From assembly GCA_965249275.1 (NCBI GenBank), contig CBDFLQ010000005.1:288001-352000 (forward strand): a stretch of 64,000 nucleotides of DNA, given 5' to 3'. Origin of the DNA: Dehalococcoidia bacterium (GTDB lineage Bacteria > Chloroflexota > Dehalococcoidia > Plut-88900). A program made the translations under genes and the position numbers. Shown here piece after piece: positions 19,262-57,500 of this stretch (the first letter of the stretch is position 1; the number at the start of each line of letters is the position of its first letter). Under the pieces are notes generated by a model that saw only the letters and a program-made list of their open reading frames with translations, was not told the origin of the DNA and searched no databases.

Positions 19262-19492
19262 CACCCTCACTCTCCTCGGCGAGCCTACGGCCCTCCCCGG
19301 CGAGTCTTCGACCCTAGCCCTCTCACGCCTCGGCGCATCTTCAACCCATCAAGAGACTTTTGCGTAACTGATGATCGCATCTGCTGTGCCGTCCAGATCG
19401 CCTAACACCCCCCGCTCATACTTCGAGAGCCTCAGCACGAGCGGCCCCACGCCCCTCCACCACAGGTTATGCAAAGGTCTCATCAAGGGAGA
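19262..19492 (+). repeat. Host repeat D carrying three 21-nt micro-elements (19271-19291, 19292-19312, 19325-19345) and a MITE
   Basis: Removing the inserts and one TSD copy restores CACCCTCACCCTAGCCCTCTCCCATCAAGGGAGA, matching the intact copy at ~63259 except for one base. Confidence 0.85.
19353..19481. mobile_element. 129-bp MITE with 16-bp TIRs and 5-bp TSD ATCAA
   Basis: GAGACTTTTGCGTAAC ... GTTATGCAAAGGTCTC, flanked by ATCAA at 19348-19352 and 19482-19486; contains a host repeat B copy. Confidence 0.8.
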
Positions 19493-19499
19493 TGTGACA

Positions 19500-19883
19500 G
19501 TGAAGATCAAACTTACGAGCGTATTTGTCGAGGATCAGGAGAAGGCACTCAGGTTCTATACGGAAGTCCTGGGCTTTGTTAAGAAAGAGGATTCCCCGAT
19601 TGGGGAATTCAAATGGTTGACGGTTGTCTCCCCCGAAGAGCCGGATGATGTCGAGCTGCTTCTTGAACCTAATGAGAACCCGGCTGCCAAGAGTTACCAA
19701 AAGGCTCTGTTCGAGCAGGGTATTGCCCAGGCAGCATTCGCCGTTGACGATATTCACAAAGAATACGAACGATTGAAGGGGCTGGGCGTGGCGTTCATGA
19801 TGGATCCCACAAGCGCAGGGCCGGCGACGATAGCCGTGTTTAATGATACCTGCGGCAACTGGATACAGATCTATCAGGAGTAA
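19500..19883 (+). CDS. VOC/glyoxalase family protein
   Basis: SVFVEDQEKALRFYTEVLGF, WLTV, DTCGNWIQI. Confidence 0.88.
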   Translation: MKIKLTSVFVEDQEKALRFYTEVLGFVKKEDSPIGEFKWLTVVSPEEPDDVELLLEPNENPAAKSYQKALFEQGIAQAAFAVDDIHKEYERLKGLGVAFMMDPTSAGPATIAVFNDTCGNWIQIYQE

Positions 19884-19885
19884 GC

Positions 19886-21316
19886 TTACTCCTCGATTCG
19901 GGCGAGGCGTCTCACTTTCTCCGCTGCTGCATCGAAGTCGTAGCCGTGGATGGTCATCATCTTCTGGGCCTGGGGGGAGCCCGCGCCGTGGTATTGGCTG
20001 ACGAGGAAGTGGCTGGCGTACTCGTCGGCGGCCAGGTCTCGCACGAAGTTGTAGAGCCTTAATCGCTGGTCGGCGGTGGCCTTGTCGCCGCCCGAGAGGT
20101 ACTTCCTGAAGGTAGCGTGGAGGTCGGGGTGATTGTAGTCGGTCTCCCAAGGCTGGGTCGCGATTATCGCGCCGCCGATATCGATGAGATGCTTGTACAT
20201 GTCGCTGAGCTTGTCGGTGAACATGTACTTCGCGACGTTGGTGATCACGCCGTTTGGTATGGCCATGCCGTCGGAGATTGTGCAGGTCATGGCAGCGGAC
20301 GTTACAAAAGCGTCCATTGAGCTTGCCAGCATGGCGAACTCGAAGAGGTGGTCACGGATGTGGGGCGCCCTTTCGACGCCGTTATACTTGGCCAGGAGAT
20401 AGGCTGTACCCGCCAATACCTCCGCATCGTGTTTCATGGAGCACAGCGCCGAGTAGCGGAGCAGCAGACCCAAGCCTCGGGCTATGGGCTGGGACAGCCA
20501 GTCCTCTCCATTCTGGATGACGCGCTCCCAGGGCACAAACACGTCGTCGAACCAGACGAAGCACTCGGAGCCCGGCTCGTCATGGCTGATCGGGTACTCA
20601 AAGCTCGACCCCACCATCCGACGGGGTCTCATGAGCAGCTTCACACCCTCCGTGCCCGGCGAGACAACGCAGGTCACCGAATATTCCGACTCGTCGGGCT
20701 TCATTCTCTTGGTCGGCATAACCACGAGCTCGTGCATGTAGGCGGCGCCGGAGATGTGGGCTTTCATGCCCCGGATCACGATACCATCGTCCCGCTCCGC
20801 AACCTTGTGCACGTACATGTCGGGGTCTGCCTGCTGGCTGGGATGGAGGGACCGGTCGCCCTTGGTGTCGGACATGGCGACGGCCATGATCAGGTCTTCC
20901 TCCCGGAAACGGCGGTAGAGTGAGTCTACGTTGGTCTTGTACATGGGGTTGGCCTCGGCCAGCTCCCCGGACACCATGTAGAGCGAAAGCATGGCATCGC
21001 TCAAAGCTACCGCTGCCCCGTAGCCCAGTTGGCCACCCGTTTCCAGCGCTTTGGCCCGCTTGAGCAGGTCATCGGAAGTCCTGGGTGGGATCAGGAAGAG
21101 GTCCGCCGGGTTTCCAGTCTCGGGGTCGGGGGCGGTGAAGATGTCCTTCAGTGCCGGGTCGTGGAACCGCTGATACTCCCGGGAGAAGAAGAGGGCACCC
21201 TGCCGGGTGATGGGGTGTTCGGTGACGTCGGTGATCTTTTCGCCGTCGGCGTAGATTACCCTGCCGTCTCGGATGCTCTCAAGGTAGTCTTCGGGTGTTT
21301 TGAAGGTCTTGGTCAT
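19886..21316 (-). CDS. 4-hydroxybutyryl-CoA dehydratase (AbfD)-like / HpaB-family flavoprotein
   Basis: YLESIRDGR, D.KGDRS..P..Q.DPD, G.KAH, HGAGSPQAQ motifs. Confidence 0.8.
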   Translation of the reverse strand: MTKTFKTPEDYLESIRDGRVIYADGEKITDVTEHPITRQGALFFSREYQRFHDPALKDIFTAPDPETGNPADLFLIPPRTSDDLLKRAKALETGGQLGYGAAVALSDAMLSLYMVSGELAEANPMYKTNVDSLYRRFREEDLIMAVAMSDTKGDRSLHPSQQADPDMYVHKVAERDDGIVIRGMKAHISGAAYMHELVVMPTKRMKPDESEYSVTCVVSPGTEGVKLLMRPRRMVGSSFEYPISHDEPGSECFVWFDDVFVPWERVIQNGEDWLSQPIARGLGLLLRYSALCSMKHDAEVLAGTAYLLAKYNGVERAPHIRDHLFEFAMLASSMDAFVTSAAMTCTISDGMAIPNGVITNVAKYMFTDKLSDMYKHLIDIGGAIIATQPWETDYNHPDLHATFRKYLSGGDKATADQRLRLYNFVRDLAADEYASHFLVSQYHGAGSPQAQKMMTIHGYDFDAAAEKVRRLARIEE

Positions 21317-21359
21317 GGCGTTGTCTCCCCTGTTTGGTCTCGGGCTGGGTTTCTGAACC

Positions 21360-22142
21360 TTGACCCGCGCCCCTTACGATTCCTATACTCGCCCCGTGCG
21401 CCCCCTCAGCTATTCCCAGATATCAGCTTATCAGACCTGTCCCCTATTCTACAGGTTCCAATACATCGATAAGCTGCCGACCAAGCCGAGGTTCTACTTC
21501 AGCTTCGGTAACACGCTGCACCGTTGCGCGCAGTTTTTCTTCAAGAAGAAGGGGCAAGGCCCCCCGTCCCTTGAGGACTTTCTGGAATTTTATAATCAGG
21601 CATGGAGCTCGGCGGGGTATTTCAGCAGGAGGCAGGAGGCAGCGGACAAACAAACGGGCAGGGAGATACTCACGCAGTTCTGGGAACTCAACTCAAGGGA
21701 CTATCATCTCCCCCTCGCAACCGAAAAGTGGTTCACGGTCAACGTAGGGGGTGTTCCATTCCGGGGCTACATAGACCGGGTGGACATATCACCAACCGGG
21801 GGACTCAACATCCTGGACTACAAGAGCGGGAAGAGGGACATATCCAAAGACGAGGTGGAGGAGAGCCTTCAGCTGAGCATGTACCAGATCGGGGCGCAGG
21901 GGACTTGGCTTCTACCAGTCGAGAAGTTGTCCCTGTACCACCTGCGCTCCAATACCAACGTGGAGGTCGAGGCCCGTGACGATAACACCATCAAACGGGC
22001 CGAGGACACGGTCACCACGGTTTCACAGTCAATAGAAAACAAAGAGTTCGAGCCCCGACTCAACCCCTCGTGCCCGTGCGAATTCTCCGAACTATGCCCG
22101 CTGTTTAATCCCGACGCGGACCCTGAGGCTCCCGGGTCCTGA
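21360..22142 (+). CDS. PD-(D/E)XK RecB/AddB/Cas4-like nuclease
   Basis: LSYSQI..Y..CP, FG..LH, GYIDRVD, ILDYKSG, QL.MY, C-terminal CPC..LCP. Confidence 0.87.
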   Translation: MTRAPYDSYTRPVRPLSYSQISAYQTCPLFYRFQYIDKLPTKPRFYFSFGNTLHRCAQFFFKKKGQGPPSLEDFLEFYNQAWSSAGYFSRRQEAADKQTGREILTQFWELNSRDYHLPLATEKWFTVNVGGVPFRGYIDRVDISPTGGLNILDYKSGKRDISKDEVEESLQLSMYQIGAQGTWLLPVEKLSLYHLRSNTNVEVEARDDNTIKRAEDTVTTVSQSIENKEFEPRLNPSCPCEFSELCPLFNPDADPEAPGS

Positions 22143-22695
22143 CCTTTTCTCCCTTGAGCAAGGCCTCGGCGGCCAGGACTATTGCGCCCAGTTCCACGGG
22201 CAGCGCAGTCAGCGCCTCATCCAGCACTTTTCTGGACTGTCTGGCATACCGCATGGGTTCGTGGAACAAGAGGTTCCCGTCCAGCATAGCCACCTCCTTC
22301 GCCACCCCGACGCCCGGGACGGAATTCCAGAGTCCGGAGAGGGCCTTTTCTCGAAGCGCTTCAGGACTCGCCTTTTGACCATTGCCAAGAACTGCCGAAA
22401 GCATCTCCGCGATGGACGTGTGCGTCACACCCGAATCGGCGAGGCGAAAGGCTTCCCTCAGCGGGCCTGGAGGAATGAACCGTGCCGCAATCCGGGAGCC
22501 GACCAGCCACGCCACTCCTTTACCCAACCCCGAGGCACTGGCGGTCTTGGCAAGGGAGTCGGCCCAGCGTTTGGCCGAGGGGCCTGACAGCACGCCGGCA
22601 TTTTCCGATAGTGCCATCTCGGCCGCCTGACCTATGGCCGCAGCGAGAATACGCATTTCCATGCGTTTGCTTATGAGAACTCGGCGAAGGAGCAT
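22105..22695 (-). CDS. Hypothetical protein
   Basis: 196-aa ORF directly downstream of the GNAT gene. Confidence 0.5.
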   Translation of the reverse strand: MLLRRVLISKRMEMRILAAAIGQAAEMALSENAGVLSGPSAKRWADSLAKTASASGLGKGVAWLVGSRIAARFIPPGPLREAFRLADSGVTHTSIAEMLSAVLGNGQKASPEALREKALSGLWNSVPGVGVAKEVAMLDGNLLFHEPMRYARQSRKVLDEALTALPVELGAIVLAAEALLKGEKVRTREPQGPRRD

Positions 22696-22696
22696 A

Positions 22697-23326
22697 TCAA
22701 GCGCCTTCCAAGGGTTTTTCCATCCGGTGCATCTCTTCCGCGGTGGTGGCCAACCTTACGAGGAAGCCCCGTTCCGTATGCGTAATCCTGTAACCCAGTC
22801 GCTGGTACAGGTGTATCGCGCCCATGTTTTCGCCTAACACGTCCAGGCACATCTTCAGCTTTCCCCGGGACTTAGCTTTTTCCTCCGCTTTCAGCATCAA
22901 GGCGCTACCGATGCCGAGGTTCCGGAACGTCGGGTCTACCGCTATCGTGTCCACCTTGAATTCGTCGGGGGTTATGGAGTCTCCCCACGCCAGCAGGGTC
23001 AGGTTAAATAGCACACGGACCGTCTTTGGGGGCCAGAACGTAGTAAAGAGTGTCGAAGTCTTGAGCTCATAGAATTTACGTTCCTTTGTCTTAACGGCGA
23101 GAATCCCTGAAAGCCGACCATCCACTATCGCCGTCAGGCAACTGTCCCTGTCAACCGAGTCTCTAAAGAGGCGAACGAAGTCCTCAGCATTTCTGAAACC
23201 GATACGGAACTTCTTGGCGAAGGCTTCGTAAGTGACTCTAAGCGCATCGTCAACGTGTTCCTCCGCGAGCCCGTCTACGATTTCAACTGCCGGGGTCGTC
23301 ATCAGTGCCTGAGTCCCGGCCGACAT
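22697..23326 (-). CDS. GNAT family N-acetyltransferase
   Basis: IAVDPTFRNLGIGSALM motif A; N.GA..LY.RLGY. Confidence 0.85.
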   Translation of the reverse strand: MSAGTQALMTTPAVEIVDGLAEEHVDDALRVTYEAFAKKFRIGFRNAEDFVRLFRDSVDRDSCLTAIVDGRLSGILAVKTKERKFYELKTSTLFTTFWPPKTVRVLFNLTLLAWGDSITPDEFKVDTIAVDPTFRNLGIGSALMLKAEEKAKSRGKLKMCLDVLGENMGAIHLYQRLGYRITHTERGFLVRLATTAEEMHRMEKPLEGA

Positions 23327-23333
23327 ACACAGC

Positions 23334-24560
23334 CTATGAGCAAATTGTCTCCGCGGTCAGGGCCAGGACCCGGCTGCAGAGTTCCATCTCGTCGATGTCC
23401 GAGTAGTCGTTGCCGTAGGAGCCGCCTGCGGGCCCGTAAATCGGCGCGGGTATGCCTGCAAGCCACAGGTGGGCGTCGTCGTCGCCGTACCTGGCTGAAA
23501 GGGCCGAGGCTGGGAGTCCGACGCCTTTGGGATCGTTACCGGTCACTTTCCGGTAACTGTCGGACACCGCTCGTACAATCTCCTCATCCTCGGACATGTC
23601 CATGGGCGGGTGGTCCAGAATCCAGGTCTTGAACTTCCGCTCGATGGGGTTCACCAACTCGTATTCGAAGTCGGGATCTTCTTCGCGAAGCGCGCTGAGA
23701 GTAGCTTCCAGGTCGGCACGTATGGTGTCCGCGGTCATGCCAGGCACCGTGCTTATGGCGATGAACGCCGTGCACAGGTCACAATTCCGGCTGACGGAAC
23801 GCATGTCGTAGCTTTCGCCCCTCCCACCGATAATCGAGCCGATTTTCAGCCACGGCAGCCCTTCGACAATCCAGGGGGCGTGGTTCAATTTCGTGGCGTA
23901 TATGGCCTCAATGGCCTTCATCATCTTGGGGATTGCGTCCACGCCGGTAACGTCGGCGCCATGGGGGTGTCGGCCCTTCACGTGTAGGGAGAACTTGCTC
24001 ATGCCACCGTGTTTGGTGACCACGTAATGTGCGCTGTATGGTTCCGTGACCACGGCCACGTCGGTCCGATAGCCGTTCTCTATCAGGTACTTGGTACCAA
24101 GGCCACCCTGGAGTTCTGCGAGGACGCAGGCCACCACGACGTCTCCCCGCAGCTTTACGCCTGATTTTATGATGGCGTCGGCGGCGTGGACCATTGAGGC
24201 CACACCGCTCTTCATGTTCCTTATGCCCGCGCCGTAAAGCCTGTTACCTTCGACCCACGGTTCGTACGGGTTCCGGGTCCAGCCTGCGGCAATAGGGTTG
24301 CTGTCCAGGTGGCCGTTGAACATGATGCTGCGTCCCCCACCCGACCCCCGAATTACGCCGACCGTCTGGAACCAGCCGGGCTCCACTTCTTGCAGCTCCA
24401 CCTCGAAGCCTCGGGCCTTCATGTACTCGGCGACCCAGCGGGCTGCTGCGGTCTCTTCCCCAATGGGGCTCGGTATCTTGATCAGGGACTTACCGAGCTC
24501 CACAAGCTCGTTACGGTCGATCTTGCTCAATATGGGGTGGTTCGACGTGTCTTCCGGCAT
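23334..24560 (-). CDS. M20 family (ArgE/DapE-like) amidohydrolase with atypical metal ligands
   Basis: FNGHLD, LYGAG.RNMK, TEP motifs. Confidence 0.82.
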   Translation of the reverse strand: MPEDTSNHPILSKIDRNELVELGKSLIKIPSPIGEETAAARWVAEYMKARGFEVELQEVEPGWFQTVGVIRGSGGGRSIMFNGHLDSNPIAAGWTRNPYEPWVEGNRLYGAGIRNMKSGVASMVHAADAIIKSGVKLRGDVVVACVLAELQGGLGTKYLIENGYRTDVAVVTEPYSAHYVVTKHGGMSKFSLHVKGRHPHGADVTGVDAIPKMMKAIEAIYATKLNHAPWIVEGLPWLKIGSIIGGRGESYDMRSVSRNCDLCTAFIAISTVPGMTADTIRADLEATLSALREEDPDFEYELVNPIERKFKTWILDHPPMDMSEDEEIVRAVSDSYRKVTGNDPKGVGLPASALSARYGDDDAHLWLAGIPAPIYGPAGGSYGNDYSDIDEMELCSRVLALTAETICS

Positions 24561-24562
24561 AG

Positions 24563-25786
24563 CTAGATAGCTCCCTCTTTCTCCAGAGCGGCAACTTCAT
24601 TTTCCGAATAGTCCAGGAGGCCCATGAGCACCTCTCGGTTATGTTGACCGAGGGTCGGGGCGGGGGCGAAGGTCTCGTCCTCGGTGTCCGACATCTTGAT
24701 CGGGTTCCCGGCGGCCTTGTATTTGCCGCTCACGGGATGCTCCTGCTCGACGACCATCTCGCGGTGCAGTATCTGCGGGTTGGACAGGGCCTCGGCGAAG
24801 TTGTTGACCTTGGCTGCGGGCACCTGTCCGTCGGCGAGCTCTTGCAGCCATTGCTCCACAGTCTTGGCAGAGAACGCTCTCTGGATGATCTCCTCCAGAG
24901 CCGCTTTGTTCTCATGCCTAAGGTTGGGCGAGGCGAAGCGAGGGTCTTCAGGAAGATCGGAGAATCCGTCCATACGGGAGATGATAACGGCCAGGTTTTC
25001 GTAGAATTTCTGGGTCGGGCAGCTTATTTGGACGTAAGCGCCATCGCTGGTCTGGAAGGCACCGATGGGGACGTTGGTCTCGTGGCTGTTGCCTACGGGA
25101 TTCGGGAGGTTGCCGGAAACCAGGAACAGCTGCCCTACGTGGGCCTGGAGGGCGATCTGGACGTCAAGGAGGCTGATGCTTACCTCCTGTCCTACCCCCT
25201 TCTGCTCCCGGGAGTAGAGGGCAGCGAGAATCCCCTGCACCGCGTATAGGCCGCCGCCCAAATCGCCCATCGGGTATCCCATCAGGGCCGGGGGGCCTCC
25301 CTTGAAGCCCGTGACGCTCATTGCGCCGCCCATGGCCTGGATCATCCCGTCAAAAGCGGGATTATTCTTCAGCGGGCCCGATGTCCCGAAGCCCGATATG
25401 GAACAGTAGATTATCCTCGGGTTTATCTGTTTCAGGGCCTGGTAACCAAAGCCCAGCCTGTCCAGCACCCCGGGCCTGAAGTTTTCGAAGACCACGTCCG
25501 AAACCTTCACTAGGCCGCGGAATACCTCCTGGCCTTTTTCGCTTTTCAGGTTGAGCGTTAGACCCTTCTTGTTGCGGTTCATGCCTAAGAAATAGGCACT
25601 CTCTCCCTCCAGATAGTATGGCGGGAAGCGCCGGCTGGAGTCGCCGACCCCCGGCTGCTCGATCTTCAGGACCTCGGCGCCGAGGTCTCCCAAGATTCGG
25701 GAGCCGAAGGGCCCCGCCAATGCCTGACTCATGTCCAGCACCCTCACTCCGGCGAGGGGCAGGCTGCTACTGCCGTTACTACCCAT
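24563..25786 (-). CDS. Family III CoA transferase (CaiB/BaiF)
   Basis: LAGPF, LGAEVLKIE, NRNKK, ENFRPG, GD..GG. Confidence 0.93.
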   Translation of the reverse strand: MGSNGSSSLPLAGVRVLDMSQALAGPFGSRILGDLGAEVLKIEQPGVGDSSRRFPPYYLEGESAYFLGMNRNKKGLTLNLKSEKGQEVFRGLVKVSDVVFENFRPGVLDRLGFGYQALKQINPRIIYCSISGFGTSGPLKNNPAFDGMIQAMGGAMSVTGFKGGPPALMGYPMGDLGGGLYAVQGILAALYSREQKGVGQEVSISLLDVQIALQAHVGQLFLVSGNLPNPVGNSHETNVPIGAFQTSDGAYVQISCPTQKFYENLAVIISRMDGFSDLPEDPRFASPNLRHENKAALEEIIQRAFSAKTVEQWLQELADGQVPAAKVNNFAEALSNPQILHREMVVEQEHPVSGKYKAAGNPIKMSDTEDETFAPAPTLGQHNREVLMGLLDYSENEVAALEKEGAI

Positions 25787-26573: not shown

Positions 26574-26753
26574 GGGCGTCCGGCTCCTCTCCCGCCCCGT
26601 AGAGGCGCCGAGGGCGATTATAACGGCCCGCCCCTTTCCTTGACAACAAATTGACCATCTCCCTACCATCCCTTAGATGACCCTACAGGCTCGGCATCTT
26701 GGCCTCGTTGCCCAGGCCTGCAATCGCCACCAGTCCCAAGCAGGAACTTTGTT

Positions 26754-27299: not shown

Positions 27300-27338
27300 A
27301 CAAATACACAAATTCCTCGTCTCCTCCCGATACCACCA

Positions 27339-28082: not shown

Positions 28083-28136
28083 TGCGTTTCCGGTTATTTA
28101 GCTTGCGCAACCACATCCAGTGGTAGAGCAGGGGCC

Positions 28137-28331
28137 TCAGCCCACGCCTGCGCCAGCAAGGGGAGTGACCGAGCCGTCGTTGCTCATCGAGAAGGAAGCG
28201 AACACCGAGAGTACCCTCTGAGCGCCGTTGTTACACGATCGACAGACGGCGGGCTCGTTGGCTTCCCGCATGGGTCTCAGCATCTCGAACTGATGGCCGC
28301 AGTCGGAGCATCGGTATTCGTAGAGGGGCAT
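28137..28331 (-). CDS. FmdB family zinc-ribbon protein
   Basis: MPLYEYRCSDCGHQFE..C..C. Confidence 0.88.
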   Translation of the reverse strand: MPLYEYRCSDCGHQFEMLRPMREANEPAVCRSCNNGAQRVLSVFASFSMSNDGSVTPLAGAGVG

Positions 28332-28357
28332 GGTGTTCCTCCGGGATATCTAAGGCC

Positions 28358-28387: not shown

Positions 28388-28459
28388 GATTATGGCTCCG
28401 TATCAGCTGCTGGGACGCCTCGAGAATACTTCCCAACCAACGCAAACAACAAGCCAAAA

Positions 28460-35306: not shown

Positions 35307-36302
35307 CTAGCACCACGGAAACTCACCATCCCTATTATTTGCCCTACTTCTCAAACTGTTCGGTATGCAGCCACTCAAGTCATTGTCGCTGAGGTCCAGC
35401 CATTTCAGGTTGGCGAGGTTGCCCAACTCCGCCGGTATCTCTCCACTCAATTCATTGTTGCTGAGGCCCACATACTCCAGGTTGGCGAGGTCACCCAACT
35501 CCGCCGGTATCTCTCCACTCAATTCGTTGTTTCCGAGTAATAGCCTTTCCAGGTTGGCAAGGTTGCCCAACTCCGGGGGTATTTCGCCATTCAAGTCATT
35601 GCCACCTAGGTTTAGCGATTCCAGGTTGCTCAGGTTGCCCAACTCCGCCGGTATCTCTCGATTTATATAGTTGCCACTGAGGTACAGCCATTCCAGGTTG
35701 CTCAGGTTGCCCAACTCCGGGGGTATTTCGCCATTCAAGTCATTGTCTCCGAGGTTCAGCTTTACCAGGTTGGCGAGGTTGCCTAACTCCGGGGGTATCT
35801 CTCCACTCAATCCAGTCTTACTGAGGTTCAGACTTTCCAGGTTGGCGAGGTTGCCCAACTCTGCCGGAATCTCTCCACTCAATTTATTCAAGCTGAGGTC
35901 CAGCAATTTCAGGTTGGCGAGGTTGCCCAACTCCGGGGGTATCTCTCCACTCAATCTATTCTCATCGAAGTCAAATACTCCTCCACCGAGATCCAGTACT
36001 TCCAGGCTGGTAAGGTCACCCAACTCCGGCGGTATCTCCCCGACCAACTCGTTCTCGGCAAGGAGCAGTTCTGTAACACGGCCTTCCTCATTAGTGGATA
36101 CGTTGGACCATTTGTGCAGCGGCGCATCAGTCAGCCAGTATTCTTTGTCTGCCCAGTACTCGCCGGTGGTGGCATGGAAGAGCGCAACTAGCGCTTCTCT
36201 ATCAGGTTCATCGGGGCCACATGCCGATAGCGCCGCCATGATAATCAGCCCAAGTAGGCAACAAAGGAGGCCGGTCAGCCATCTTTTCGGTTGCAACTTC
36301 AT
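35307..36302 (-). CDS. Leucine-rich-repeat lipoprotein with plant-specific-type 24-aa LRRs
   Basis: LSAC lipobox; DREALVAL N-cap; about 9 repeats of LSGEIPPELGNLANL (72-bp DNA period). Confidence 0.9.
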   Translation of the reverse strand: MKLQPKRWLTGLLCCLLGLIIMAALSACGPDEPDREALVALFHATTGEYWADKEYWLTDAPLHKWSNVSTNEEGRVTELLLAENELVGEIPPELGDLTSLEVLDLGGGVFDFDENRLSGEIPPELGNLANLKLLDLSLNKLSGEIPAELGNLANLESLNLSKTGLSGEIPPELGNLANLVKLNLGDNDLNGEIPPELGNLSNLEWLYLSGNYINREIPAELGNLSNLESLNLGGNDLNGEIPPELGNLANLERLLLGNNELSGEIPAELGDLANLEYVGLSNNELSGEIPAELGNLANLKWLDLSDNDLSGCIPNSLRSRANNRDGEFPWC

Positions 36303-36645: not shown

Positions 36646-37494
36646 TTAGCACCGCGGTAACTCACCGCCAATCCATGCCTTACCTATCAAACTGCGTGGT
36701 ATACAGCCACTCAGTTTGTTGCCTGCGAGGCCCACATCCTCCAGGTTGGCGAGGTCACCCAGCTCCCGCGGTATCTCCCCACTCAATTCATTGTTGCTGA
36801 GGCCCAGCGATTTCAGGTTGGCAAGGTCACCCAACTCCGCCGGTATCTCGCCACTCAAATTATTGGACCTGAGATCTAACCTGACCATGCTGATCATATT
36901 GCCCAACTCTCGCGGTATCTCTCCACTCAATTCATTGTGGCTAAGGAACAGCCGGCCCAGGTTGACAAGATCGCCCAATTCCGCCGGTAACTCTCCACTC
37001 AATTCATTTTGCTCAAGAACCAAGTCCTGCAGGTGGAAGAGGTTTCTCAACGCTGCCGGTATCTCCCCGCTCAAGTTATTGTCATGGAGAGTCAGAAATT
37101 TCATTTTGATCGGGTTTCCCAACTCCGCCGGTATCTCTCCACTCAATTCATTCTCACTGAGGTCCAGCCAGAACAGTTTGGTCAGATTGCCCAGCTCCGG
37201 CGGTATCTCCCCACTCAATCCATTCCTCCTGATGTGCAGTTGTGAAACACGGCCTTCCTTAGTAGTTACGCCGTACCATTCGCCTATCGGCGCATCGCTC
37301 AGCCAGTTTTCATTGTTACGCCAGCTCGGGCCATCCGTTGCGTTGTACAGTGCAACTAGCGCTTCTCTATCCGTTTCGGGCGACGTGGTCGCTGTCGGTC
37401 GCGTGTCGGAGCCACAGGCGGTCAGAAGACCCACTAGCACCAAGCCAACTAGCAAGAAACGCAAATGAACTAGAACCATGTACACATGAGTCAT
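36646..37494 (-). CDS. Leucine-rich-repeat lipoprotein, paralog (true start may be slightly downstream)
   Basis: LTAC lipobox; DREALVALYNATDGPSW N-cap; about 7 LRRs. Confidence 0.9.
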   Translation of the reverse strand: MTHVYMVLVHLRFLLVGLVLVGLLTACGSDTRPTATTSPETDREALVALYNATDGPSWRNNENWLSDAPIGEWYGVTTKEGRVSQLHIRRNGLSGEIPPELGNLTKLFWLDLSENELSGEIPAELGNPIKMKFLTLHDNNLSGEIPAALRNLFHLQDLVLEQNELSGELPAELGDLVNLGRLFLSHNELSGEIPRELGNMISMVRLDLRSNNLSGEIPAELGDLANLKSLGLSNNELSGEIPRELGDLANLEDVGLAGNKLSGCIPRSLIGKAWIGGELPRC

Positions 37495-41494: not shown

Positions 41495-41616
41495 TCATGT
41501 CACTCGCCGAGGCGAGTCTTCGACTCTCCTCAGCGAGCCTACGGCCCCATCCCCTTTCACGCGGGAGGGGACACCCCCCGCTTGACCCTTCGAGTGCGTC
41601 AGGGTGAGCGGCCCCT
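41495..41616 (+). repeat. Degenerate host repeat D with two tandem 21-nt micro-elements (41504-41524, 41525-41545), followed by host repeat B
   Basis: TCAC[TCGCCGAGGCGAGTCTTCGAC][TCTCCTCAGCGAGCCTACGGC]CCCATCCCC. Confidence 0.75.
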
Positions 41617-41747
41617 CCCTGGGATTCACACCATGTCATACCTGCGGTTCTAAAGTCACAAACGAAGTGCACCACCTGATGAGGGTGCGTCGTGGGAAGA
41701 GGTGTTGGGGGTGGATAGGCCGTACTTCGTGAGCGCGCAAGTCCTAG

Positions 41748-42943
41748 GAAACCTCTGAACAAGTCTAAGGGCATAGGTAATAGGTAAGATAGGGAGAGTA
41801 AGGCCAAAGCTGAGGTGAGATTTGATGGAGCAGCCGACATTTGCAGACTTGGAATACGAGGGCAAGAAGCGAAAGACCCGCCGGGAGATATTTCTGGAGC
41901 GGATGGAGGACCTGGTTCCATGGGGAAAGTTAGAGGAGCGAATCCGGCCCTACTATTCCAGGGCGGGCCGTGGACGGAGGCCCTACGAGTTGTCGGTGAT
42001 GCTGCGGATACACTGCGTGCAGCTGTTCTACAACCTGAGCGATCCGGGCATGGAGGACATGCTCTACGAGGTGGAGTCGGTGAGGCGGTTCGCAGGTCTG
42101 AGGCTGTCCGGCCCCTTGCCTGACGAGACTACGATACTGAACTTCCGCCATCTGCTGGAAGAGCAGGAGTTGGGTCGGGGGCTGTTCGAGGAGATCAACC
42201 GTCATCTGGAGTCTCGGGGACTGAGGCTCAGGGAGGGTACGATTGTGGATGCGAGCATCATCGAGGCGCCGGCGTCTACGAAGAACCGTGCTGGAGAGCG
42301 AGACCCCGATATGCACCAAGTGAAGAAGGGGAAGGAGTGGCACTTCGGTATGAAAGTGCACATTGGTGCAGACGCTGACACGGGGGTGGTGCACAGTATG
42401 AGTACGACAGCTGCGAACGTGCATGACGTGACGGAGGCGCACCGGCTGCTGCATGGAGGGGAGAGGCGAGTGTGGGGAGATGCGGGATATCAGGGAGTGG
42501 AGAAGCGGGCGGAGAATCGGGATATGGATGTGGAGTGGCGGGTGGCGATGAGACCTGGACGGCGTCGGAAACTGAGGGCGGGGAGCTGCGAGGCCTTAGC
42601 GGAGAAGAGCAAATCATCCATCAGGGCTAAGGTGGAGCATCCGTTCCTGTACGTGAAACGGCACTTCGGCTACGCCAAGGTCCGCTACAGGGGCTTGTAC
42701 AAGAACACGCAACGGGTGGCGATGCTGCTGGGGCTGGCCAACTTGGTAAGGGCCGAGCGCCACTTAGCGGTGTGACGGAGGAGCAGTGTGGTCAAATCCG
42801 GGTCGATGGTGACTGGATGCCCTGACAGGCCAGAACATAGGATGCAAATAAGCCACCGAGACGCAACATTACGACCCAACCTCTCCCCAAAACTCCATGC
42901 AAGACAACCTAAGCTGGTTTACAGTGAGTTGTTCAGAGCTTCC
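41748..42943 (+). mobile_element. IS5 family (IS5 subgroup) element, 1196 bp, CTAG TSD
   Basis: TIRs GAAACCTCTGAACAA / TTGTTCAGAGCTTCC; CTAG at 41744-41747 and 42944-42947. Confidence 0.95.
41822..42775 (+). CDS. IS5 family transposase
   Basis: TRREIFL, PDETTILNFRHLLE, IVDA, WHFGMK.HIG.D, GDAGY, RAKVEHPF. Confidence 0.95.
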   Translation: MMEQPTFADLEYEGKKRKTRREIFLERMEDLVPWGKLEERIRPYYSRAGRGRRPYELSVMLRIHCVQLFYNLSDPGMEDMLYEVESVRRFAGLRLSGPLPDETTILNFRHLLEEQELGRGLFEEINRHLESRGLRLREGTIVDASIIEAPASTKNRAGERDPDMHQVKKGKEWHFGMKVHIGADADTGVVHSMSTTAANVHDVTEAHRLLHGGERRVWGDAGYQGVEKRAENRDMDVEWRVAMRPGRRRKLRAGSCEALAEKSKSSIRAKVEHPFLYVKRHFGYAKVRYRGLYKNTQRVAMLLGLANLVRAERHLAV

Positions 42944-43028
42944 CTAGATTCCTCGCGGAGCCGCGGAATGACACGGGGGGGGCAGGGGAGATGGGTGGGG
43001 ACGGGGGCGGATGTGAGAAAATGCATAT

Positions 43029-46220: not shown

Positions 46221-46400
46221 CACCCTCACCTCTTCGACAGGCTCAGGGCAGGCTCTAGCCCTCTCACGCCTTGGCGCATCTACGACCCGTCGAGGGAGAG
46301 GGGACAGGACGCCCCCCGCTCGACCCTTCGACCCTGCTTCGGCCTCTGCGGATCCTCCTCAGGCGGATGTTCCATCTTCGACAGCACGAGCGGCCCCACG
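46221..46400 (+). repeat. Host repeats D and B carrying 24-nt (46231-46254), 21-nt (46266-46286) and nested 42-nt (46341-46382) inserts
   Basis: Removing the first two inserts restores CACCCTCACCCTAGCCCTCTCCCGTCGAGGGAGAGGG. Confidence 0.8.
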
Positions 46401-49423: not shown

Positions 49424-49439
49424 GCATCCTCTACAACTC

Positions 49440-51440: not shown

Positions 51441-51476
51441 GGTGGGTGGGGATGGGTTGCGCCCCACCACCCCACT

Positions 51477-51589
51477 GGGGGAACCCTCACCCCCTTGGTC
51501 CCCCTCTCCCTTAGGGCCTTCAAGGGAGAGGGGGAAAGAAGAATAGGGGCATGCATATGCGCTTTAGCGCATATGCATGCCCCTAATTC
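51477..51589 (+). repeat. ~110-nt double-hairpin element, copy 2
   Basis: Matches 43626-43736; stem at 51544-51585. Confidence 0.85.
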
Positions 51590-51850
51590 AGTACCGGGGG
51601 AGGGGAAAAGGAGGAGAGATTGGGGATTGGGCGATGTTGTGGGGCCTAGTTCGGTGCAGGTGGGGAGGGGAAAGGAAGAGAGGTTGGGGTTGGCGAATGT
51701 TATGTGGCTAGTTCGGTGCGGGGAAGGGGGAAAGGAAGAGGGGTTGGGGGTTGGGCGTCGCTATGTGGTCAATTCAGTACGGGGGAGGAGGGAAAAGGGG
51801 CGAGGTTGGGGATTTGGTGATGTTGTGTGGACTAGTACGAGAGGGAGGGG
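51585..51850 (+). repeat. G-rich imperfect tandem repeat, ~62-nt unit, 4 copies plus a partial copy
   Basis: Recurrent A(A/G)TTC(A/G)GT(A/G)C..GGGGAGGGGAAAGG..GTTGGGG..ATGTT.TGTGG. Confidence 0.75.
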
Positions 51851-51851
51851 A

Positions 51852-51945
51852 TGGATTCACGACTCGGCGCACGCTAAAGGCGCATCCTCCCAAGGCGGAC
51901 GTTCCGCTTGCAGCATCTTTGTCCGGCTCGGGGGGCGGGATGACG
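51852..51945 (+). repeat. Host repeat C with triply nested micro-elements (51859-51923)
   Basis: TGGATTC[ACGACTCGGCGC[ACGCTAAAGGCGCA[TCCTCCCAAGGCGGACGTTCC]GCTTGCAGC]ATCTTTGTC]CGGCTCGGGGGGCGGGATGACG. Confidence 0.65.
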
Positions 51946-51980
51946 AGGGGAAGGCAGATAGGTGATGGGGCAAGTCCTAG

Positions 51981-53176
51981 GGAAGCTCTGAACAACTCAC
52001 TGTAAACCAGCTTAGGTTGTCTTGCATGGAGTTTTGGGGAGAGGTTGGGTCGTAATGTTGCGTCTCGGTGGCTTATTTGCATCCTATGTTCTGGCCTGTC
52101 AGGGCATCCAGTCACCATCGACCCGGATTTGACCACACTGCTCCTCCGTCACACCGCTAAGTGGCGCTCGGCCCTTACCAAGTTGGCCAGCCCCAGCAGC
52201 ATCGCCACCCGTTGCGTGTTCTTGTACAAGCCCCTGTAGCGGACCTTGGCGTAGCCGAAGTGCCGTTTCACGTACAGGAACGGATGCTCCACCTTAGCCC
52301 TGATGGATGATTTGCTCTTCTCCGCTAAGGCCTCGCAGCTCCCCGCCCTCAGTTTCCGACGCCGTCCAGGTCTCATCGCCACCCGCCACTCCACATCCAT
52401 ATCCCGATTCTCCGCCCGCTTCTCCACTCCCTGATATCCCGCATCTCCCCACACTCGCCTCTCCCCTCCATGCAGCAGCCGGTGCGCCTCCGTCACGTCA
52501 TGCACGTTCGCAGCTGTCGTACTCATACTGTGCACCACCCCCGTGTCAGCGTCTGCACCAATGTGCACTTTCATACCGAAGTGCCACTCCTTCCCCTTCT
52601 TCACTTGGTGCATATCGGGGTCTCGCTCTCCAGCACGGTTCTTCGTAGACGCCGGCGCCTCGATGATGCTCGCATCCACAATCGTACCCTCCCTGAGCCT
52701 CAGTCCCCGAGACTCCAGATGACGGTTGATCTCCTCGAACAGCCCCCGACCCAACTCCTGCTCTTCCAGCAGATGGCGGAAGTTCAGTATCGTAGTCTCG
52801 TCAGGCAAGGGGCCGGACAGCCTCAGACCTGCGAACCGCCTCACCGACTCCACCTCGTAGAGCATGTCCTCCATGCCCGGATCGCTCAGGTTGTAGAACA
52901 GCTGCACGCAGTGTATCCGCAGCATCACCGACAACTCGTAGGGCCTCCGTCCACGGCCCGCCCTGGAATAGTAGGGCCGGATTCGCTCCTCTAACTTTCC
53001 CCATGGAACCAGGTCCTCCATCCGCTCCAGAAATATCTCCCGGCGGGTCTTTCGCTTCTTGCCCTCGTATTCCAAGTCTGCAAATGTCGGCTGCTCCATC
53101 AAATCTCACCTCAGCTTTGGCCTTACTCTCCCTATCTTACCTATTACCTATGCCCTTAGACTTGTTCAGAGGTTTC
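51981..53176 (-). mobile_element. IS5 family element, second copy, 1196 bp, CTAG TSD
   Basis: Same TIRs inverted; CTAG at 51977-51980 and 53177-53180. Confidence 0.95.
52149..53102 (-). CDS. IS5 family transposase
   Basis: Translation identical to 41822-42775. Confidence 0.95.
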   Translation of the reverse strand: MMEQPTFADLEYEGKKRKTRREIFLERMEDLVPWGKLEERIRPYYSRAGRGRRPYELSVMLRIHCVQLFYNLSDPGMEDMLYEVESVRRFAGLRLSGPLPDETTILNFRHLLEEQELGRGLFEEINRHLESRGLRLREGTIVDASIIEAPASTKNRAGERDPDMHQVKKGKEWHFGMKVHIGADADTGVVHSMSTTAANVHDVTEAHRLLHGGERRVWGDAGYQGVEKRAENRDMDVEWRVAMRPGRRRKLRAGSCEALAEKSKSSIRAKVEHPFLYVKRHFGYAKVRYRGLYKNTQRVAMLLGLANLVRAERHLAV

Positions 53177-53349
53177 CTAGATTCCTCGCGGAGCCTCGGA
53201 ATGACAGTGTCGTTGGTGTGTCGACTGGAATGGACGAGGTCGGGGGTAGAGCGTGGTACAGAGTATAGTCGGCGCCTTTGGGGAATCCGCTTGTGTACTG
53301 GTGATGGGCACTGTCGCATGAGGGGCGCTTGGTCGGATAGACTTCGCTT

Positions 53350-54225
53350 ATGAACGCTCTGCCCCTGGGGTTGATGTTGCTGTCCGCCTCTTTCCATGCG
53401 ACGTGGAACCTGCTGCTAAAACGCTCCGATAACCAGGAAGCGTTTGTGTGGGGGATAGTCGTTAGTGGAAGCGTGATGTTCGTGCCCTTGGGCATCGTTC
53501 TGTTCTGGCTCTACCCGATAGATCCTCCGGGATACTTGTTCGCGCTGGTTTCCACGGGGTTTCAGAGTTTCTATTTCGTAATGCTGGGGCGGGCCTACTC
53601 CCGAGGTGATCTCTCACTGATCTATCCCGTAGCCCGAGGCATTGGTCCCATGCTGGTCCCCGTTCTGGCAGTGCCATTGCTAGGGGAAAGAGTGGCGTGG
53701 CCTGCCGTAATGGGCATCGCCCTTATCGTCGGTGGCATATATGTCGTTTCCTGGTGGGGCCGATTCCGGCAGATCCTTGCCAGGCCGTCCAGGTTGTTGC
53801 GGGAACGGAGCGTCGGCTTTGCCGTGCTCGCGGGGATGGCGATCGCCGGTTACTCGCTGGTGGACAAGCGCGGCGTGGAGCACGTTCAACCTTTCCTCTA
53901 TATGTACATGCAGACTATTGGGGGCGCTATAGCCCTTGCTCCGTACGTAATCCGCAGGCATGGTCTGGCCTCGGTAAAACGGGAGTGGAGAACGAACACC
54001 AGGGCAGTTTTGGCAGCGGGTCTGCTGGTTTTTGTCGCCTACGGGCTAGCGTTGACGGCATTCTCCCTGGCGCAGGTCAGCTACATGGCTCCGGCTCGGG
54101 AGTCCGGAATAGTGATAGGGGTTCTATTGGGAGTCTTCGTGCTGAAGGAATCGTTTGGCAAAGGTCGACTACTGGGCTCGGGTTTCATTGTGGGGGGGTT
54201 GGCCTTGATTGCGCTGTCTCCTTAG
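53350..54225 (+). CDS. DMT/EamA family transporter
   Basis: HATWN, AY.RGDLS..YP.ARG, YS.VDK, about 10 TM helices. Confidence 0.9.
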   Translation: MNALPLGLMLLSASFHATWNLLLKRSDNQEAFVWGIVVSGSVMFVPLGIVLFWLYPIDPPGYLFALVSTGFQSFYFVMLGRAYSRGDLSLIYPVARGIGPMLVPVLAVPLLGERVAWPAVMGIALIVGGIYVVSWWGRFRQILARPSRLLRERSVGFAVLAGMAIAGYSLVDKRGVEHVQPFLYMYMQTIGGAIALAPYVIRRHGLASVKREWRTNTRAVLAAGLLVFVAYGLALTAFSLAQVSYMAPARESGIVIGVLLGVFVLKESFGKGRLLGSGFIVGGLALIALSP

Positions 54226-54260
54226 GCTCGCGTCGGTGCGCCCTTGGGGAGGCCTTACGG

Positions 54261-54485
54261 TTAACAGGGCACAGGCTCGTCTACCTCTTCGCCTTCAATG
54301 GCGGTGAGGGCCTCTTCGAGCATGTGCTCCTGGACGAGGATGCCGCAGGGTCGGATGGAGACGCCAAGAAAGGCGCTGGTGTCGCCGGGATTGAGGCGAA
54401 ATGGAATACCGTTGTAGGAGAGGAGGCCACCCCACATTTCGGCGATGATCTGGTCGGGGGCGGTGGCTACTAGGACCCACTTCAT
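54261..54485 (-). CDS. DUF2007-like small protein
   Basis: W..VATA..Q..AE....LL...GIP. Confidence 0.75.
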   Translation of the reverse strand: MKWVLVATAPDQIIAEMWGGLLSYNGIPFRLNPGDTSAFLGVSIRPCGILVQEHMLEEALTAIEGEEVDEPVPC

Positions 54486-54506
54486 TTTCGGGCGACCTTT
54501 CCGGGT

Positions 54507-57500
54507 CTAGGCCCCGGCTAGTGTGATGGCGTCATCGCCGAGGCGGGGGGAGAGGAGCTTGACGAGGCGGGGGGAATACTCCACCTGGACGCCGGGGACC
54601 TCCAAGTGAGTGATTCGGGAGCGTTCTTCGATTTGGAGGAATAGGGCACTGGGGCCGGGACACTGCCTGGCTATGGTTAGGGCGTCTTTGAGCATCTCGG
54701 CGTCCTGGGTGTCGTCTCCCGTGGCGCGGATTTTGAGCCAGACTTCGCCGGGGGTGGTTGGAGGGGGATGGATTCCGGCCTCCGCAGGAATGACGGTGGG
54801 GGTGGGGTGAGCGGCACCATTTTCCGATTCCCGATTGGTTGAAACTGGTGCAGGTTCAGGATAAGCGGGCGGGGCTTCCCCATTCCGCTCGGTTGATCCT
54901 TCGATCCGCCTCGGCGGACCTGCGGCAGGGCGAGGGGAATCCTCACCGCTCCGATTGGCAGGCTCAGGGAGAACGGCTCCATTTGCTGTTGGTTCAATAG
55001 ATGGTTCGACGCCGGAGGGAATGGATTCACGCCCCGGCGCACGCCGAGGCGCATCTTCGACATCTTCAACGGGCTCGGGGGCCGGAATGACGGGAGGAGT
55101 TTCGGACTCGTCGTCTTCGGTGGGGAGATCGAACTTTTGGACGGAGTTGCAGTGGACGGAAACACGGTCACCGTTTCGGAGGCGGACCCTACCTTCCACT
55201 TTGAGAATCGATCCATCAACCCAGAGGGCCTGGGTCCTTTGGTAGACCTCTTTCCAACCGACGACCTCAATGGAGCCGGAAATGTCCTCCATGACCGCAG
55301 CGCCGAAGGGGTCGCCTCTTCTTGTGGTGCCAGTTCTAAAGGAGGACAGCTGCCCGACCAGTATCACCTTTTGCCCATCCTGCTCGGGGCTGATATCTCC
55401 GCACATGTTGGGCTCGATGTCGCCGAGATTGCGGTTAATGCGCGAAATGGGACTTTCGGCGAGGCTTGCGCCGAGCAGCTCTTTCTCCCAGGTCTCGGAT
55501 TCGCCGGGCTGAATTCTTATCCGTTCAAGCTCAAGCTCGGGGAGGGGGGTTGCGACGGACGCACCCCATAGGTCGAACATAGTCGTTTGGCCTGAGTTTT
55601 TCAAGTCCGATTCCCTCTGGGACATGGAGAGGATACGGTCGATTCCCCCAAGCAGGGAGCCTCGGTCTTCCAGGGAGTCCAGGGCCCCGACTTTTATTAG
55701 GCTCTCCAAGGCCCGCTTGTTGAGGTTGTGCAGGTTGGCCCTGCGGCACATGTCCTCGACGGACTTGAACGGGCCATCTTCCTGCCGGGCCTCGACGAGG
55801 GGGCGTACTGCTCCATCGCCAACGTTCTTGACCGCAGATAGGCCGAACCTGATGGAGCTGGACCCGTTGTCGCGCTCCATGGTGAAGTCGATGTCGGACA
55901 TGTTGATGTCGGGGCGGAGGACCTGGATGCCGAGCTTGCGGCACTCTTCCACTGCCGAGGAGGTGTGATCGGACTGGCTGGGGTGGCAGGTGAGGAGGGC
56001 GGTCATGAACTCCACGGGATAGTTGGCCTTCAGATAGGCAGTCCAGTAGGAGATCATGGCGTAGCTGACGCTGTGGGCCTTGTTGAATGCGTAGCCGGCG
56101 AAGGGCAGTATCAGTTCGAACATGTACTCGGATAAATCCTGGGGGAACCCCTTGGCCTTGGCCCCTTCCAGGAACCGTTGCCGCTCCTCTGCCATGAGGG
56201 AGGCTATCTTCTTTCCCATCGCCTTCCGCACCACGTCGGCCTGACCGAGACTGTAGCCGGCAAACATTCGGAGGATAAGGAGCACCTGGTCCTGGTAGAC
56301 GATGACGCCGTAGGTCTCCTCGAGGATGTCGGAGAGGGCGGGGTGGGGGTAGGTGACCTCGGCGCGCTGGTGCTTGGCTTCGATGAAGCGGGTTATGTGC
56401 TCCATAGGGCCGGGTCGGTAGAGGGCGATCATGGCAGCCACGTCATTGACGGAGGTCGGCTTAAGCTGCTTGATGTATCTACGCATCCCCGAGCTTTCCA
56501 GCTGGAAGATGCCGGTGGTCTCTCCGCTGGAGAGGTGGTCGAAGGTCCTTTTATCGTCGAGGGGGATGTCGTTAAGGGACATCCTGGCGCCCCCGCTCTT
56601 GGCGATGATGTCCAGGGCCTTGCCAAGGATGGTGAGGTTAATGAGGCCGAGGAAGTCCATCTTCAGGAGGCCCAGCTTGGCGATGGGGTCCATCGAGAAC
56701 TGGGTTACGGCTATCTCCTCACCGTCGCTGCGGGATGCGCGCTGGAGAGGAACGTAGTTGGTGAGGGGTTCCTGTGAGATGACGATGCCCGCGGCATGGG
56801 TGCTGGCGTGTCGGGCCACGCCTTCCAGCTTCTGGGCGGAGTCGACGAGCTTGCGGACAGCGTGGTCCTGGTTGTAGGTGCTGCTAAGGTCGGGGCTGGC
56901 CTTCATGGCTTCGTCGATGGACTTGACCCCGAATGGCACCTGCTTGGCCACGTTGTCGACGATAGAGTAGGGCATTCCAAGGGCGCGCCCGACGTCCCTT
57001 AGGGCGGCGCGTGCGCCAAGGGTGCCGAAGGTAACGATCTGGGCGACGTGCTCGGCCCCGTACTTGCGGGTGACGTAGGCAATGACTTCGTCCCGACGGT
57101 CGTCCTGGAAGTCCAGGTCGATGTCGGGCATTTCGTTGCGCTCGATGTTGAGGAAACGCTCAAATACGAGCCCGTACTCGAGGGGGTCGATGTCGGTGAT
57201 GCCGAGGCAGTAGAGGACTACGCTGCCGGCGGCGCTTCCCCGGACGCCGAACAGGATGCCGTTCTCCCTGGAATAGGAAGTAATGTCCATGACGACCAAG
57301 AAATAGTTAGCGAACTGGGTCTTCTTGATGACGTCCAGCTCGTCGAGCAGGCGGCGGCGGGCGTTCTCTCCCGCTCCGGGGTAGAGGCGCCGGAAGCCCT
57401 CTTCGCAAAGGGTTGCAAGATAGTCGTCGGCGTCTTCGCCGTGGGGGGTGGGGTAGTGGGGGAGGCGCAGGCGGTCGAACTCGATGGAGAGGTCGCACAT

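Follow-up and report, generated by a model that had tools for sequence, protein, structure and literature searches.

Small dispersed repeats (SDRs) of 21-27 nt, SDR4-6, which also nest in one another, were reportedly described in Nostocaceae by Elhai and co-workers in 2008. SDR5 is placed precisely between the third and fourth base of the repeat HIP1 in the passages of one account that deal with it (PMC4390886), and no SDR-like repeat outside Nostocaceae is recorded among HIP1-rich cyanobacteria in the corresponding part of another (PMC5861425). Repetitive extragenic palindromes (REPs) are given in sections of a further source as 20-50-nt palindromes that follow GTAG, with a single-copy tnpA-REP gene flanked by REPs; E. 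coli REPs are there processed in vitro as folded single strands and cut on either side of the hairpin, and elements of the insertion sequence (IS) family IS200/IS605 transpose strand-specifically as single-stranded DNA (ssDNA) (PMC8266576). Miniature inverted-repeat transposable elements (MITEs) are characterised, in part of a review, by terminal inverted repeats, target duplications and a length of about 100-400 bp (PMC3184786). Here a 64,000-nt stretch of a Dehalococcoidia genome (G000:C5:288001-352000, hereafter the window) was analysed, in which discrete inserts of 21-22 nt, termed modules, lie within hairpin repeats, termed hosts, and within one another.

The source assembly (G000) holds 2.90 Mb in 7 contigs, has a G+C content of 59% and is 87% complete. 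Window positions are used for all sites unless a contig is named. A preliminary description had reported the inserts at 19262-55093; modules and hosts together span roughly 1216 to 63353, past that range at both ends. Not anticipated in that description were a strong bias of replication strand, copies lying in frame within dnaE, and the same 21-mer in other phyla. The genus was represented by G000 and eight further genomes, most of those eight being single contigs.

Insert lengths were obtained from the whole genome by searching for pairs of 11-mers that are joined in one place and separated by 1-80 extra bases elsewhere. Inserts at least 70% identical to their own flank (tandem) and pairs less than 3 kb apart were discarded, and unique filled loci were counted. 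There were 2, 11, 55, 51, 5 and 25 loci with inserts of 19, 20, 21, 22, 23 and 24 nt, respectively, on a background that is typically about 5-10 loci per length and spans 1-16 at most lengths above 3 nt; part of the 24-nt class is an unrelated IS-associated repeat. Echoes were present at 42, 43 and 44 nt (16, 13 and 11 loci) and at 63 nt (14 loci). The length peak claimed for the window was therefore also seen genome-wide, at 21-22 nt. Apart from about 8 and 7 unrelated sequences, respectively, the 21- and 22-nt inserts have a common architecture, consisting of one base, an inverted repeat of 4-5 bp around a spacer of 2 or 3 nt, one further base and a family-specific tail of 8-9 nt. There are at least five tail families.

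Ten consensus forms taken from these inserts were used to catalogue modules in G000, with the reversed genome as control. At 0, 1, 2 and 3 mismatches 75, 160, 242 and 345 loci were found, compared with 0, 0, 2 and 53 in the control. The 242 loci at up to 2 mismatches were used for the counts that follow. Modules with a 2-nt spacer are 21 nt long (138/242) and those with a 3-nt spacer 22 nt (104/242), the spacer being the cause of the difference. Variation in family A is confined to the spacer (positions 6-7) and tail position 17; each of the remaining 18 positions is conserved at 94% or more among the 48 copies, which were ascertained with up to 2 mismatches. When flanks were clustered, the 59 modules of family A fell into 12 contexts, the 44 of C into 6, the 18 of D into 3, the 39 of E into 13, the 39 of F and G together into 13 and the 43 of B into 1. 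This amounts to at least 48 contexts across six families, other modules and a linker in dnaE among them. The 10-nt core of the inverted repeat has 8 occurrences in the window where 2.9 are expected, and no shuffle out of 100 reached 8.

Coding repeats were rejected as the origin of the modules, since 183 of the 242 are intergenic by our own gene calls and long open reading frames (ORFs) have no excess of 21- over 22-nt forms (7:2 vs 114:44). An assembly artefact, 21 being a common assembler word size, was likewise rejected: the sequence of the inserts is conserved, forms of 22 nt are equally common, and the same forms recur in other projects' assemblies and in those genomes of the genus that are single contigs. 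Two short Logan contigs are suggestive only and were not counted as evidence; a contig of run X9 covers 54721-55169 with 21 gap letters at a depth of 2.9, and one of run X4 covers 54721-55224 gapless.

Inserts of 21-22 nt were confirmed at all the places cited in the preliminary description. The catalogue places 11 modules in the window, matching the earlier list and all on the + strand; the outer shells of the nests at 46340-46382, 51859-51923 and 55029-55070 are additional. Each cited segment was removed in turn, the flanks (12+12 nt) were joined, and copies of the resulting junction elsewhere in the genome were counted, with 2 mismatches allowed at most. As a control, the same segments displaced by 7 nt gave 0 copies in 14/18 tests. 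The non-zero controls came from the near-identical tandem pairs 19271-19312 and 41504-41545 (three tests, up to 2 mismatches) and from 46353-46374 (at 3 mismatches only).

Removal of the A-type module at 7257-7278 (+; 22 nt, with a 3-nt loop), which lies in a host-A hairpin repeat, left a junction with 7 copies elsewhere. Two adjoining 21-nt modules, B at 19271-19291 and B2 at 19292-19312 (+), occupy one host-D site whose junction has 35 copies, and the orthologue in G003 is without exactly one 21-nt unit. The 21-nt A-type module at 19325-19345 (+) lies in the 5' arm of a host-D hairpin (11 copies), and an A-type module of 21 nt with a variant tail lies in host D at 46266-46286 (+; 27 copies). 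At 41504-41545 (+) a B2 module (41504-41524) is followed by a B module (41525-41545); G005 is without 21 nt at 41524, and removal of the B module alone gave 2 copies. An F-type (C-like) module of 21 nt at 54906-54926 (+) lies within the dnaE reading frame of the opposite strand and has no empty form in G000. The claim that deletion restores repeats present elsewhere thus held for most cited segments, with up to 35 copies, and failed in G000 for three: the pair 41504-41545, the segment 54905/54906-54925/54926, and 46341-46382 when parsed as 2 x 21 nt.

The last of these had been misparsed. At 46340-46382 (+), in a host-B loop, a degenerate 21-nt C-type shell (about 46340-46351 and 46374-46382) encloses a 22-nt E-type module (46352/3-46373/4), and removal of 46353-46374 left a junction whose copies number 2 within 2 mismatches and 9 within 3. 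A three-level nest of 21+22+22 = 65 nt stands in host C at 51859-51923 (+), with an A shell around a D module, which in turn holds an E module (51885-51906). The junction has 14 copies after removal of all 65 nt and 9 after removal of the innermost module. At 55029-55070 (+), again in host C, an outer A module (55029-55040 and 55062-55070) contains an inner A module (55041-55061). Here removal of the pair gave 5 copies, and removal of the inner module 1 copy within 2 mismatches and 9 within 3.

Empty hosts were found in the same window. Host A is empty at 1216-1242 and, in a second copy, at 1432-1458 (+); with 3 mismatches allowed it has 110 copies in the genome, of which 104 follow the GC skew in their orientation. 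Empty host B lies at 1300-1337 (+) and, with an approximate span, at 41586-41615 (+), where the G003 orthologue has an extra 21-nt C-type module at 41600. Empty host C lies at 1350-1381 (+), with the usual insertion point between 1359 and 1360. Empty host D (63260-63297) and empty host B2 (63324-63353) stand together at 63260-63353 (+).

In the nests the order of parts is repeat-repeat-tail-tail, both in the pair at 55029-55070 and three deep at 51859-51923, and the inner module always directly follows the outer inverted repeat plus one base. Tandem duplication gives repeat-tail-repeat-tail. Local duplication of flanking sequence was accordingly ruled out for most modules by nest order and by the 70% identity filter; it may account for the adjacent B/B2 pairs, which are 82% alike (Tandem Repeats Finder). 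Together with the length peak and the clean filled and empty pairs at orthologous loci, this supports the reading of the inserts as discrete, non-coding and self-nesting modules.

Junctions are ambiguous by mostly 1-2 positions, so there is no target duplication beyond one ambiguous C, in agreement with the earlier statement. A C lies directly 5' of the junction in 51/59 modules of family A, 43/43 of B, 29/44 of C and 13/18 of D; the base before this C is T in families A and C, and A in family B. Targets lie within hairpin repeats or just 3' of the inverted repeat of another module. To that extent the proposal of structure-targeted insertion was borne out, but within the host the junction falls variously in the 5' arm of the hairpin stem, in the loop or outside the stem, and only the C, usually after T or A, is constant.

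The gene for the DNA polymerase III alpha subunit, dnaE (54507-58295, - strand, identified with Pfam), has a variable linker at about 54750-55095, which separates the OB-fold domain from a conserved C-terminal part of some 90 aa. Host-C repeats and modules lie in frame in this linker, and the nested 42-nt pair at 55029-55070 supplies 14 in-frame codons in G000 and G005. In G002 both nested modules and the upstream part of host C are absent, which the aligner rendered as a gap of 51 nt at 55005. Among the five species compared, the linker has between 1 and 4 peptide units encoded by the repeats.

Regions syntenic with the window were taken from G001, G002, G003 and G005 (80-94% identity), and every alignment gap was listed. 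Gaps of 19, 20, 21 and 22 nt numbered 2, 1, 10 and 2. Seven of the ten 21-nt gaps are modules, as are four more gaps of 22-24 nt. Clean presence or absence at orthologous loci, anticipated in the preliminary description, was found at nine sites (19272, 35094, 41524, 41600, 43659, 51509, 63269, 63280 and 63342), some of them filled in G000 and others the reverse. Sites are reused, as is clearest in a multiple alignment of 63215-63400. There the host-D site has no module in G000 and G005, a single B module in G002 and two in G003. The next site, again empty in G000, has one A module in G002 and G005, and an A module with a nested D module in G003; the third is filled only in G002 and G005 and stands empty in G000 and G003. 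A host-B1 repeat at about 63254 is absent from G000, present in G002, G005 and G003, and module-filled in G003. Substitutions occur close to some of the filled sites in this alignment.

Module orientation agrees with the sign of the local GC skew in 207 of 242 cases (40-kb windows; skew reaching 0.1-0.19). The agreement is similar in the four arrangements of flanking genes (43/48, 46/49, 32/41 and 41/45), for which genes were called from codon-position G+C; genes themselves are barely strand-biased (838:813 and 544:421). Many of the exceptions lie in small blocks in which several repeats share one orientation and the skew, taken over 10 kb, is inverted. As written, with the inverted repeat 5' and the tail 3', modules are on the G-rich strand, which we take, by the usual rule, to have the sequence of the lagging-strand template. 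A like strand pattern is described for the single-strand, fork-coupled IS200/IS605 elements in the relevant part of one source (PMC8266576). On contigs C5-C7 the GC skew reaches 0.19 and changes sign several times per contig, gene strand bias is weak, and all hairpin-repeat families are 93-98% polar to the skew.

The class was surveyed in 251 genomes from 164 genera, which were searched with a generalised pattern of families A and C and with the reversed pattern as control. The pattern was multi-copy in 9/9 genomes of the focal genus (60, 42, 101, 52, 2, 84, 64, 5 and 82 copies) and in no other genus of the 251 genomes; it was absent from the three other genera of the family searched and single-copy in each of three other genomes of the class, and the reversed pattern gave 1 match in 251. 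A scan of all species returned at least 101 stretches, some of which were coding matches, not modules; these we take to be a helicase motif, and they were set aside. Among the matches listed were Planctomycetales, KSB1, Cytophagia, Ignavibacteriae, Kapaibacterium, Sumerlaeota, Desulfovibrionales, Thermodesulfobacteriota, other Dehalococcoidia and unclassified bacteria, and genomes labelled 'Dehalococcoidia bacterium' had the same hosts and nested forms, in keeping with the Chloroflexota-like genome of the preliminary description. Of 29 genomes chosen for having a match to the 21-mer, 18, labelled as other phyla or other Dehalococcoidia, hold 4-19 copies of it, with a reversed control of 0 in all. 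Modules in the other lineages lie within or beside genome-specific hairpin repeats and after a C. Multi-copy occurrence of an identical 21-mer in other lineages argues for recognition by a conserved factor.

Phages were rejected as carriers, the 11 viral matches all being chance-like, in coding sequence and without the usual preceding base or context. Clustering of ORFs within 3 kb of the 21-mer at 47 loci in other phyla yielded, as a shared neighbour, only a flotillin-like gene at 3 loci in inconsistent positions. No account of such modules outside cyanobacteria was found in a literature search of incomplete coverage, with most subscription journals out of reach.

Taken together, the modules are very probably, or very probably were until recently, independently mobile and non-autonomous. 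The explanation that fits the whole best, which we favour by a small measure, is that non-autonomous modules of 21-22 nt are inserted 3' of a C into hairpin repeats or other modules, on ssDNA at the replication fork, by an enzyme acting in trans. A module would enter as a 21-22-nt single strand where DNA is transiently single-stranded at the fork. Insertion would take place immediately 3' of a C and without target duplication, in one of several hairpin repeats of 27-60 nt or at the exact boundary between the inverted repeat and the tail of another module, and the latter choice would generate nests. A trans-acting cleaving and joining activity, which in the focal genus would not be a recognisable Y1 HUH transposase, would read the inverted repeat and cut one base before it and about ten bases after it. 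In its distances such a cut geometry recalls the right end of IS200/IS605 elements and the nic sites of HUH enzymes. For the part of this account that invokes an ssDNA enzyme, the chances are close to even and lean slightly against.

Several results weigh against this account. Folded as ssDNA, the modules reach only -1.1 to -3.8 kcal/mol (z -1.4 to +0.5), a weak hairpin, in contrast to host D (-10.9 kcal/mol, z -3.55). As ssDNA, the mini-hairpin of the preliminary description (CGCC-nn-GGCG) is no stabler than shuffled sequence (z about 0). The conservation of 18 positions of family A at 94% or more counts in favour of the account, and suggests a partner that recognises sequence and shape rather than folding driven by thermodynamics. 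Family B, with its single context, could be a host variant. Empty hosts agree with the GC skew in 271/284 cases, and the strand bias of modules may be inherited from these still more polar hosts. An exact-flank search in other phyla returned only filled copies (4/4 in a Cytophagia genome, 3/3 in Planctomycetales genomes), so independent mobility is shown for the focal genus only.

The remaining results on this side concern the enzyme. The preliminary description had it encoded elsewhere and looked to HUH, RAYT (REP-associated tyrosine transposase) or reverse transcriptase (RT) genes that co-occur with the modules or are flanked by them; G000 offered no gene of these classes, and the nine genomes of the genus no Y1 or RAYT gene. 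PF01797 (Y1_Tnp, Y1 HUH) had no match in the nine genomes of the genus (G000 being 87% complete) or in three sister genera, and matched in 18/18 multi-copy carriers outside the family and in 6/14 control genomes. Most of 20 Y1 genes from those carriers belong to one RAYT-like family of 225-346 aa with HUH and Tyr motifs, which occurs in the majority of the multi-copy carriers that supplied the genes, and no module lies within 2 kb of any of the 20. A profile of this family matched nine genus genomes and two sister genera only through its DnaA-like C-terminal part, in ORFs of 378-590 aa; the sister genome G011, which is without modules, has in addition a 203-aa match to the HUH core. An unfiltered hmmsearch of 18,970 six-frame ORFs of G000 with the HUH part gave a best E-value of 0.42. 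G000 is without TnpB, RT, or relaxases of the MOBP, MOBF and MOBQ types, and none of its genes is bracketed by inverted copies of the repeats. A Y2 profile had no match in G000, but the Y2 control matched no genome either. At loci L138-L151 the longer RAYT-like members end in a part that matches the C-termini of the 378-590-aa ORFs of the focal family, which are putative DnaA. The multi-copy IS of G000 were rejected as movers, as none encodes a single-strand enzyme; they have a 317-aa DDE_Tnp_1 transposase (11 copies), a 394-aa rve/IS481-type transposase (8 copies) and a 320-aa ORF (11 copies), the last of which we take, by eye, to be an rve-type transposase. It is possible that the enzyme is carried by an unassembled plasmid or phage, or is of an unfamiliar family.

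With no recognisable HUH gene in the genus, two explanations that dispense with the enzyme or with independent movement stay alive. Fork copy-choice, in which a nascent strand switches to a distant module, copies about 21 nt and returns, guided by short similarities of module ends to target flanks, is unlikely. It agrees with the missing transposase candidate in nine genomes, the strong strand bias and the hairpin-prone targets. By eye, module tails also resemble the last bases of some left flanks, as guidance by similarity would have it; yet the same tail occurs beside unrelated flanks, in 12 contexts for family A alone and beside quite different flanks in other phyla. Boundaries exact to 1-2 nt and the conservation of 18 of 21 positions in family A also speak against copy-choice, which alone does not explain an identical multi-copy 21-mer in distant lineages.

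It is improbable that modules do not move on their own and that each filled variant arose once and was spread by copying of the host repeat, in the manner of REPs or MITEs, or by gene conversion. Hosts can be gained or lost as units, as host-B1 at about 63254 is, but a single orthologous host copy holds 0, 1, 2 or nested modules depending on the species, and G006 and G008, with many host-B1 matches, have only 5 and 2 modules. The single context of family B, the substitutions near some filled sites and the exclusively filled forms in two other phyla are all as host copying would leave them. Against it, the six families as a whole occur in 48 or more flank contexts, among which are other modules and the linker of dnaE, and nests up to three deep require repeated entry at a fixed internal point. 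The identity of the 21-mer across lineages, together with its many contexts, argues against either copy-choice or host copying as the sole process.

That the 21-mer is mainly a functional site, a protein-binding site or an RNA or DNA signal whose conservation across lineages, orientation polar to replication (a property of known chromosome-orienting motifs) and tolerance in frame in the essential gene dnaE reflect selection, is highly improbable given the lack of an Rfam family match, the range of 2 to 101 copies among species of one genus, the gain and loss at orthologous sites and a self-nesting without obvious functional reading, although a functional role is compatible with mobility. In the search concerned, Rfam 15 gave no match at gathering score in the window, and noise only at E-values up to 10 in two repeat-rich stretches.

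Mobility through fork ssDNA would have a wider form, which we regard as somewhat unlikely: a class of 21-22-nt mobile DNA across many phyla, entering fork ssDNA 3' of a C, self-nesting, and moved by an activity not recognisable as HUH, DDE-hairpin or RT, with the Nostoc SDRs as another instance. If so, the activity would come from a recombinase of a new family or from the replication machinery in a side reaction, and the RAYT-less focal genus, with 42-101 copies in most genomes, would be the place to find it.

Other repeats were noted around the module clusters. Directly upstream of the three-level nest, a G-rich unit of about 62 nt is repeated four times in tandem (51585-51836). A 1.2-kb IS is present in two copies (41730-42975 and, inverted, 51977-53183), both adjoining module clusters, and encodes a 317-aa DDE_Tnp_1/DUF772 transposase; it has 11 copies in G000, and copies at 97-99% identity in G002 and G005. 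The block 19138-19887 contains the repeat cluster together with a gene for a 170-aa protein of the glyoxalase family. G000 and G003 have it; in G001, G002, G004, G005, G006 and G008 it is missing and the joint is seamless. A repeat of about 700 nt, with at least 13 long copies that are 83-93% identical, has a G-type module at a fixed internal site; it occurs, among other places, at C6:500050-500780, at C5:286994-287728 just before the window and at C5:352337-352603 just after it, and showed no convincing ORF, Pfam match or Rfam match. Two minus-strand ORFs have a 72-nt tandem periodicity (35370-35955 and 36741-37224) that is leucine-rich-repeat-like by eye, and G002 has extra units of 72 and 111 nt.

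Compared with known systems, the modules resemble mosaics of the bacterial interspersed mosaic element (BIME) type in forming intergenic clusters from a few recurring short units; a mosaic leaves the clean 21-nt gains and losses at orthologous sites unexplained. MITEs differ in all their defining features, as modules have neither terminal inverted repeats nor target duplication nor a length of that order. With the IS200/IS605 elements and palindrome-associated transposable elements (PATEs) they share a strand-specific orientation, the lack of target duplication, insertion 3' of a short target, and a hairpin followed after about 10 nt by the right-end cut, the distance being about 10 nt in IS608. 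Elements of the IS200/IS605 family need two subterminal hairpins, a specific target of 4-5 nt and TnpA, and their miniature forms are about 100 nt or longer. Modules have one weak inverted repeat in 21-22 nt and a target of C only, in a genome without TnpA or TnpB. With REPs, REPINs (paired REPs) and their RAYTs they have in common short, palindromic, mostly intergenic, high-copy and non-autonomous units. The module inverted repeat is only 4-5 bp, however, its preceding base varies by family with no constant GTAG, several different tetramers precede the host-A and host-C stem, no RAYT accompanies them in the nine genomes of the genus, and no gene of G000 has inverted flanking repeats of this kind.

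The closest known case in behaviour is that of the Nostoc SDRs, a rare and unexplained kind, and the likeness drawn in the preliminary description is apt. In both, very small, non-coding, dispersed repeats of 21-27 nt (modules being of 21 nt, 138 copies, and 22 nt, 104 copies) are inserted precisely into other repeats with empty and filled forms. The comparison is one of behaviour, and SDRs belong to Nostocaceae, with HIP1 as the host of SDR5, whereas modules are found in a Chloroflexota-type genus and have hairpin repeats as hosts. Very small mobile repeats have been described once, in Nostocaceae, and like behaviour is now seen in another phylum. The same 21-mer in unrelated phyla suggests a widespread, overlooked process, which may shape intergenic structure and even protein linkers such as that of dnaE. 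Nine related and mostly closed genomes with 2 to 101 copies, gain and loss, a replication-strand signature and a clear negative for Y1 HUH and RAYT bring the question of how a 21-nt element is moved within reach of comparative and biochemical work. To what is described for SDRs the modules add a replication-strand bias, in-frame copies in dnaE, residence in a genus without Y1 HUH transposases and presence in several phyla.

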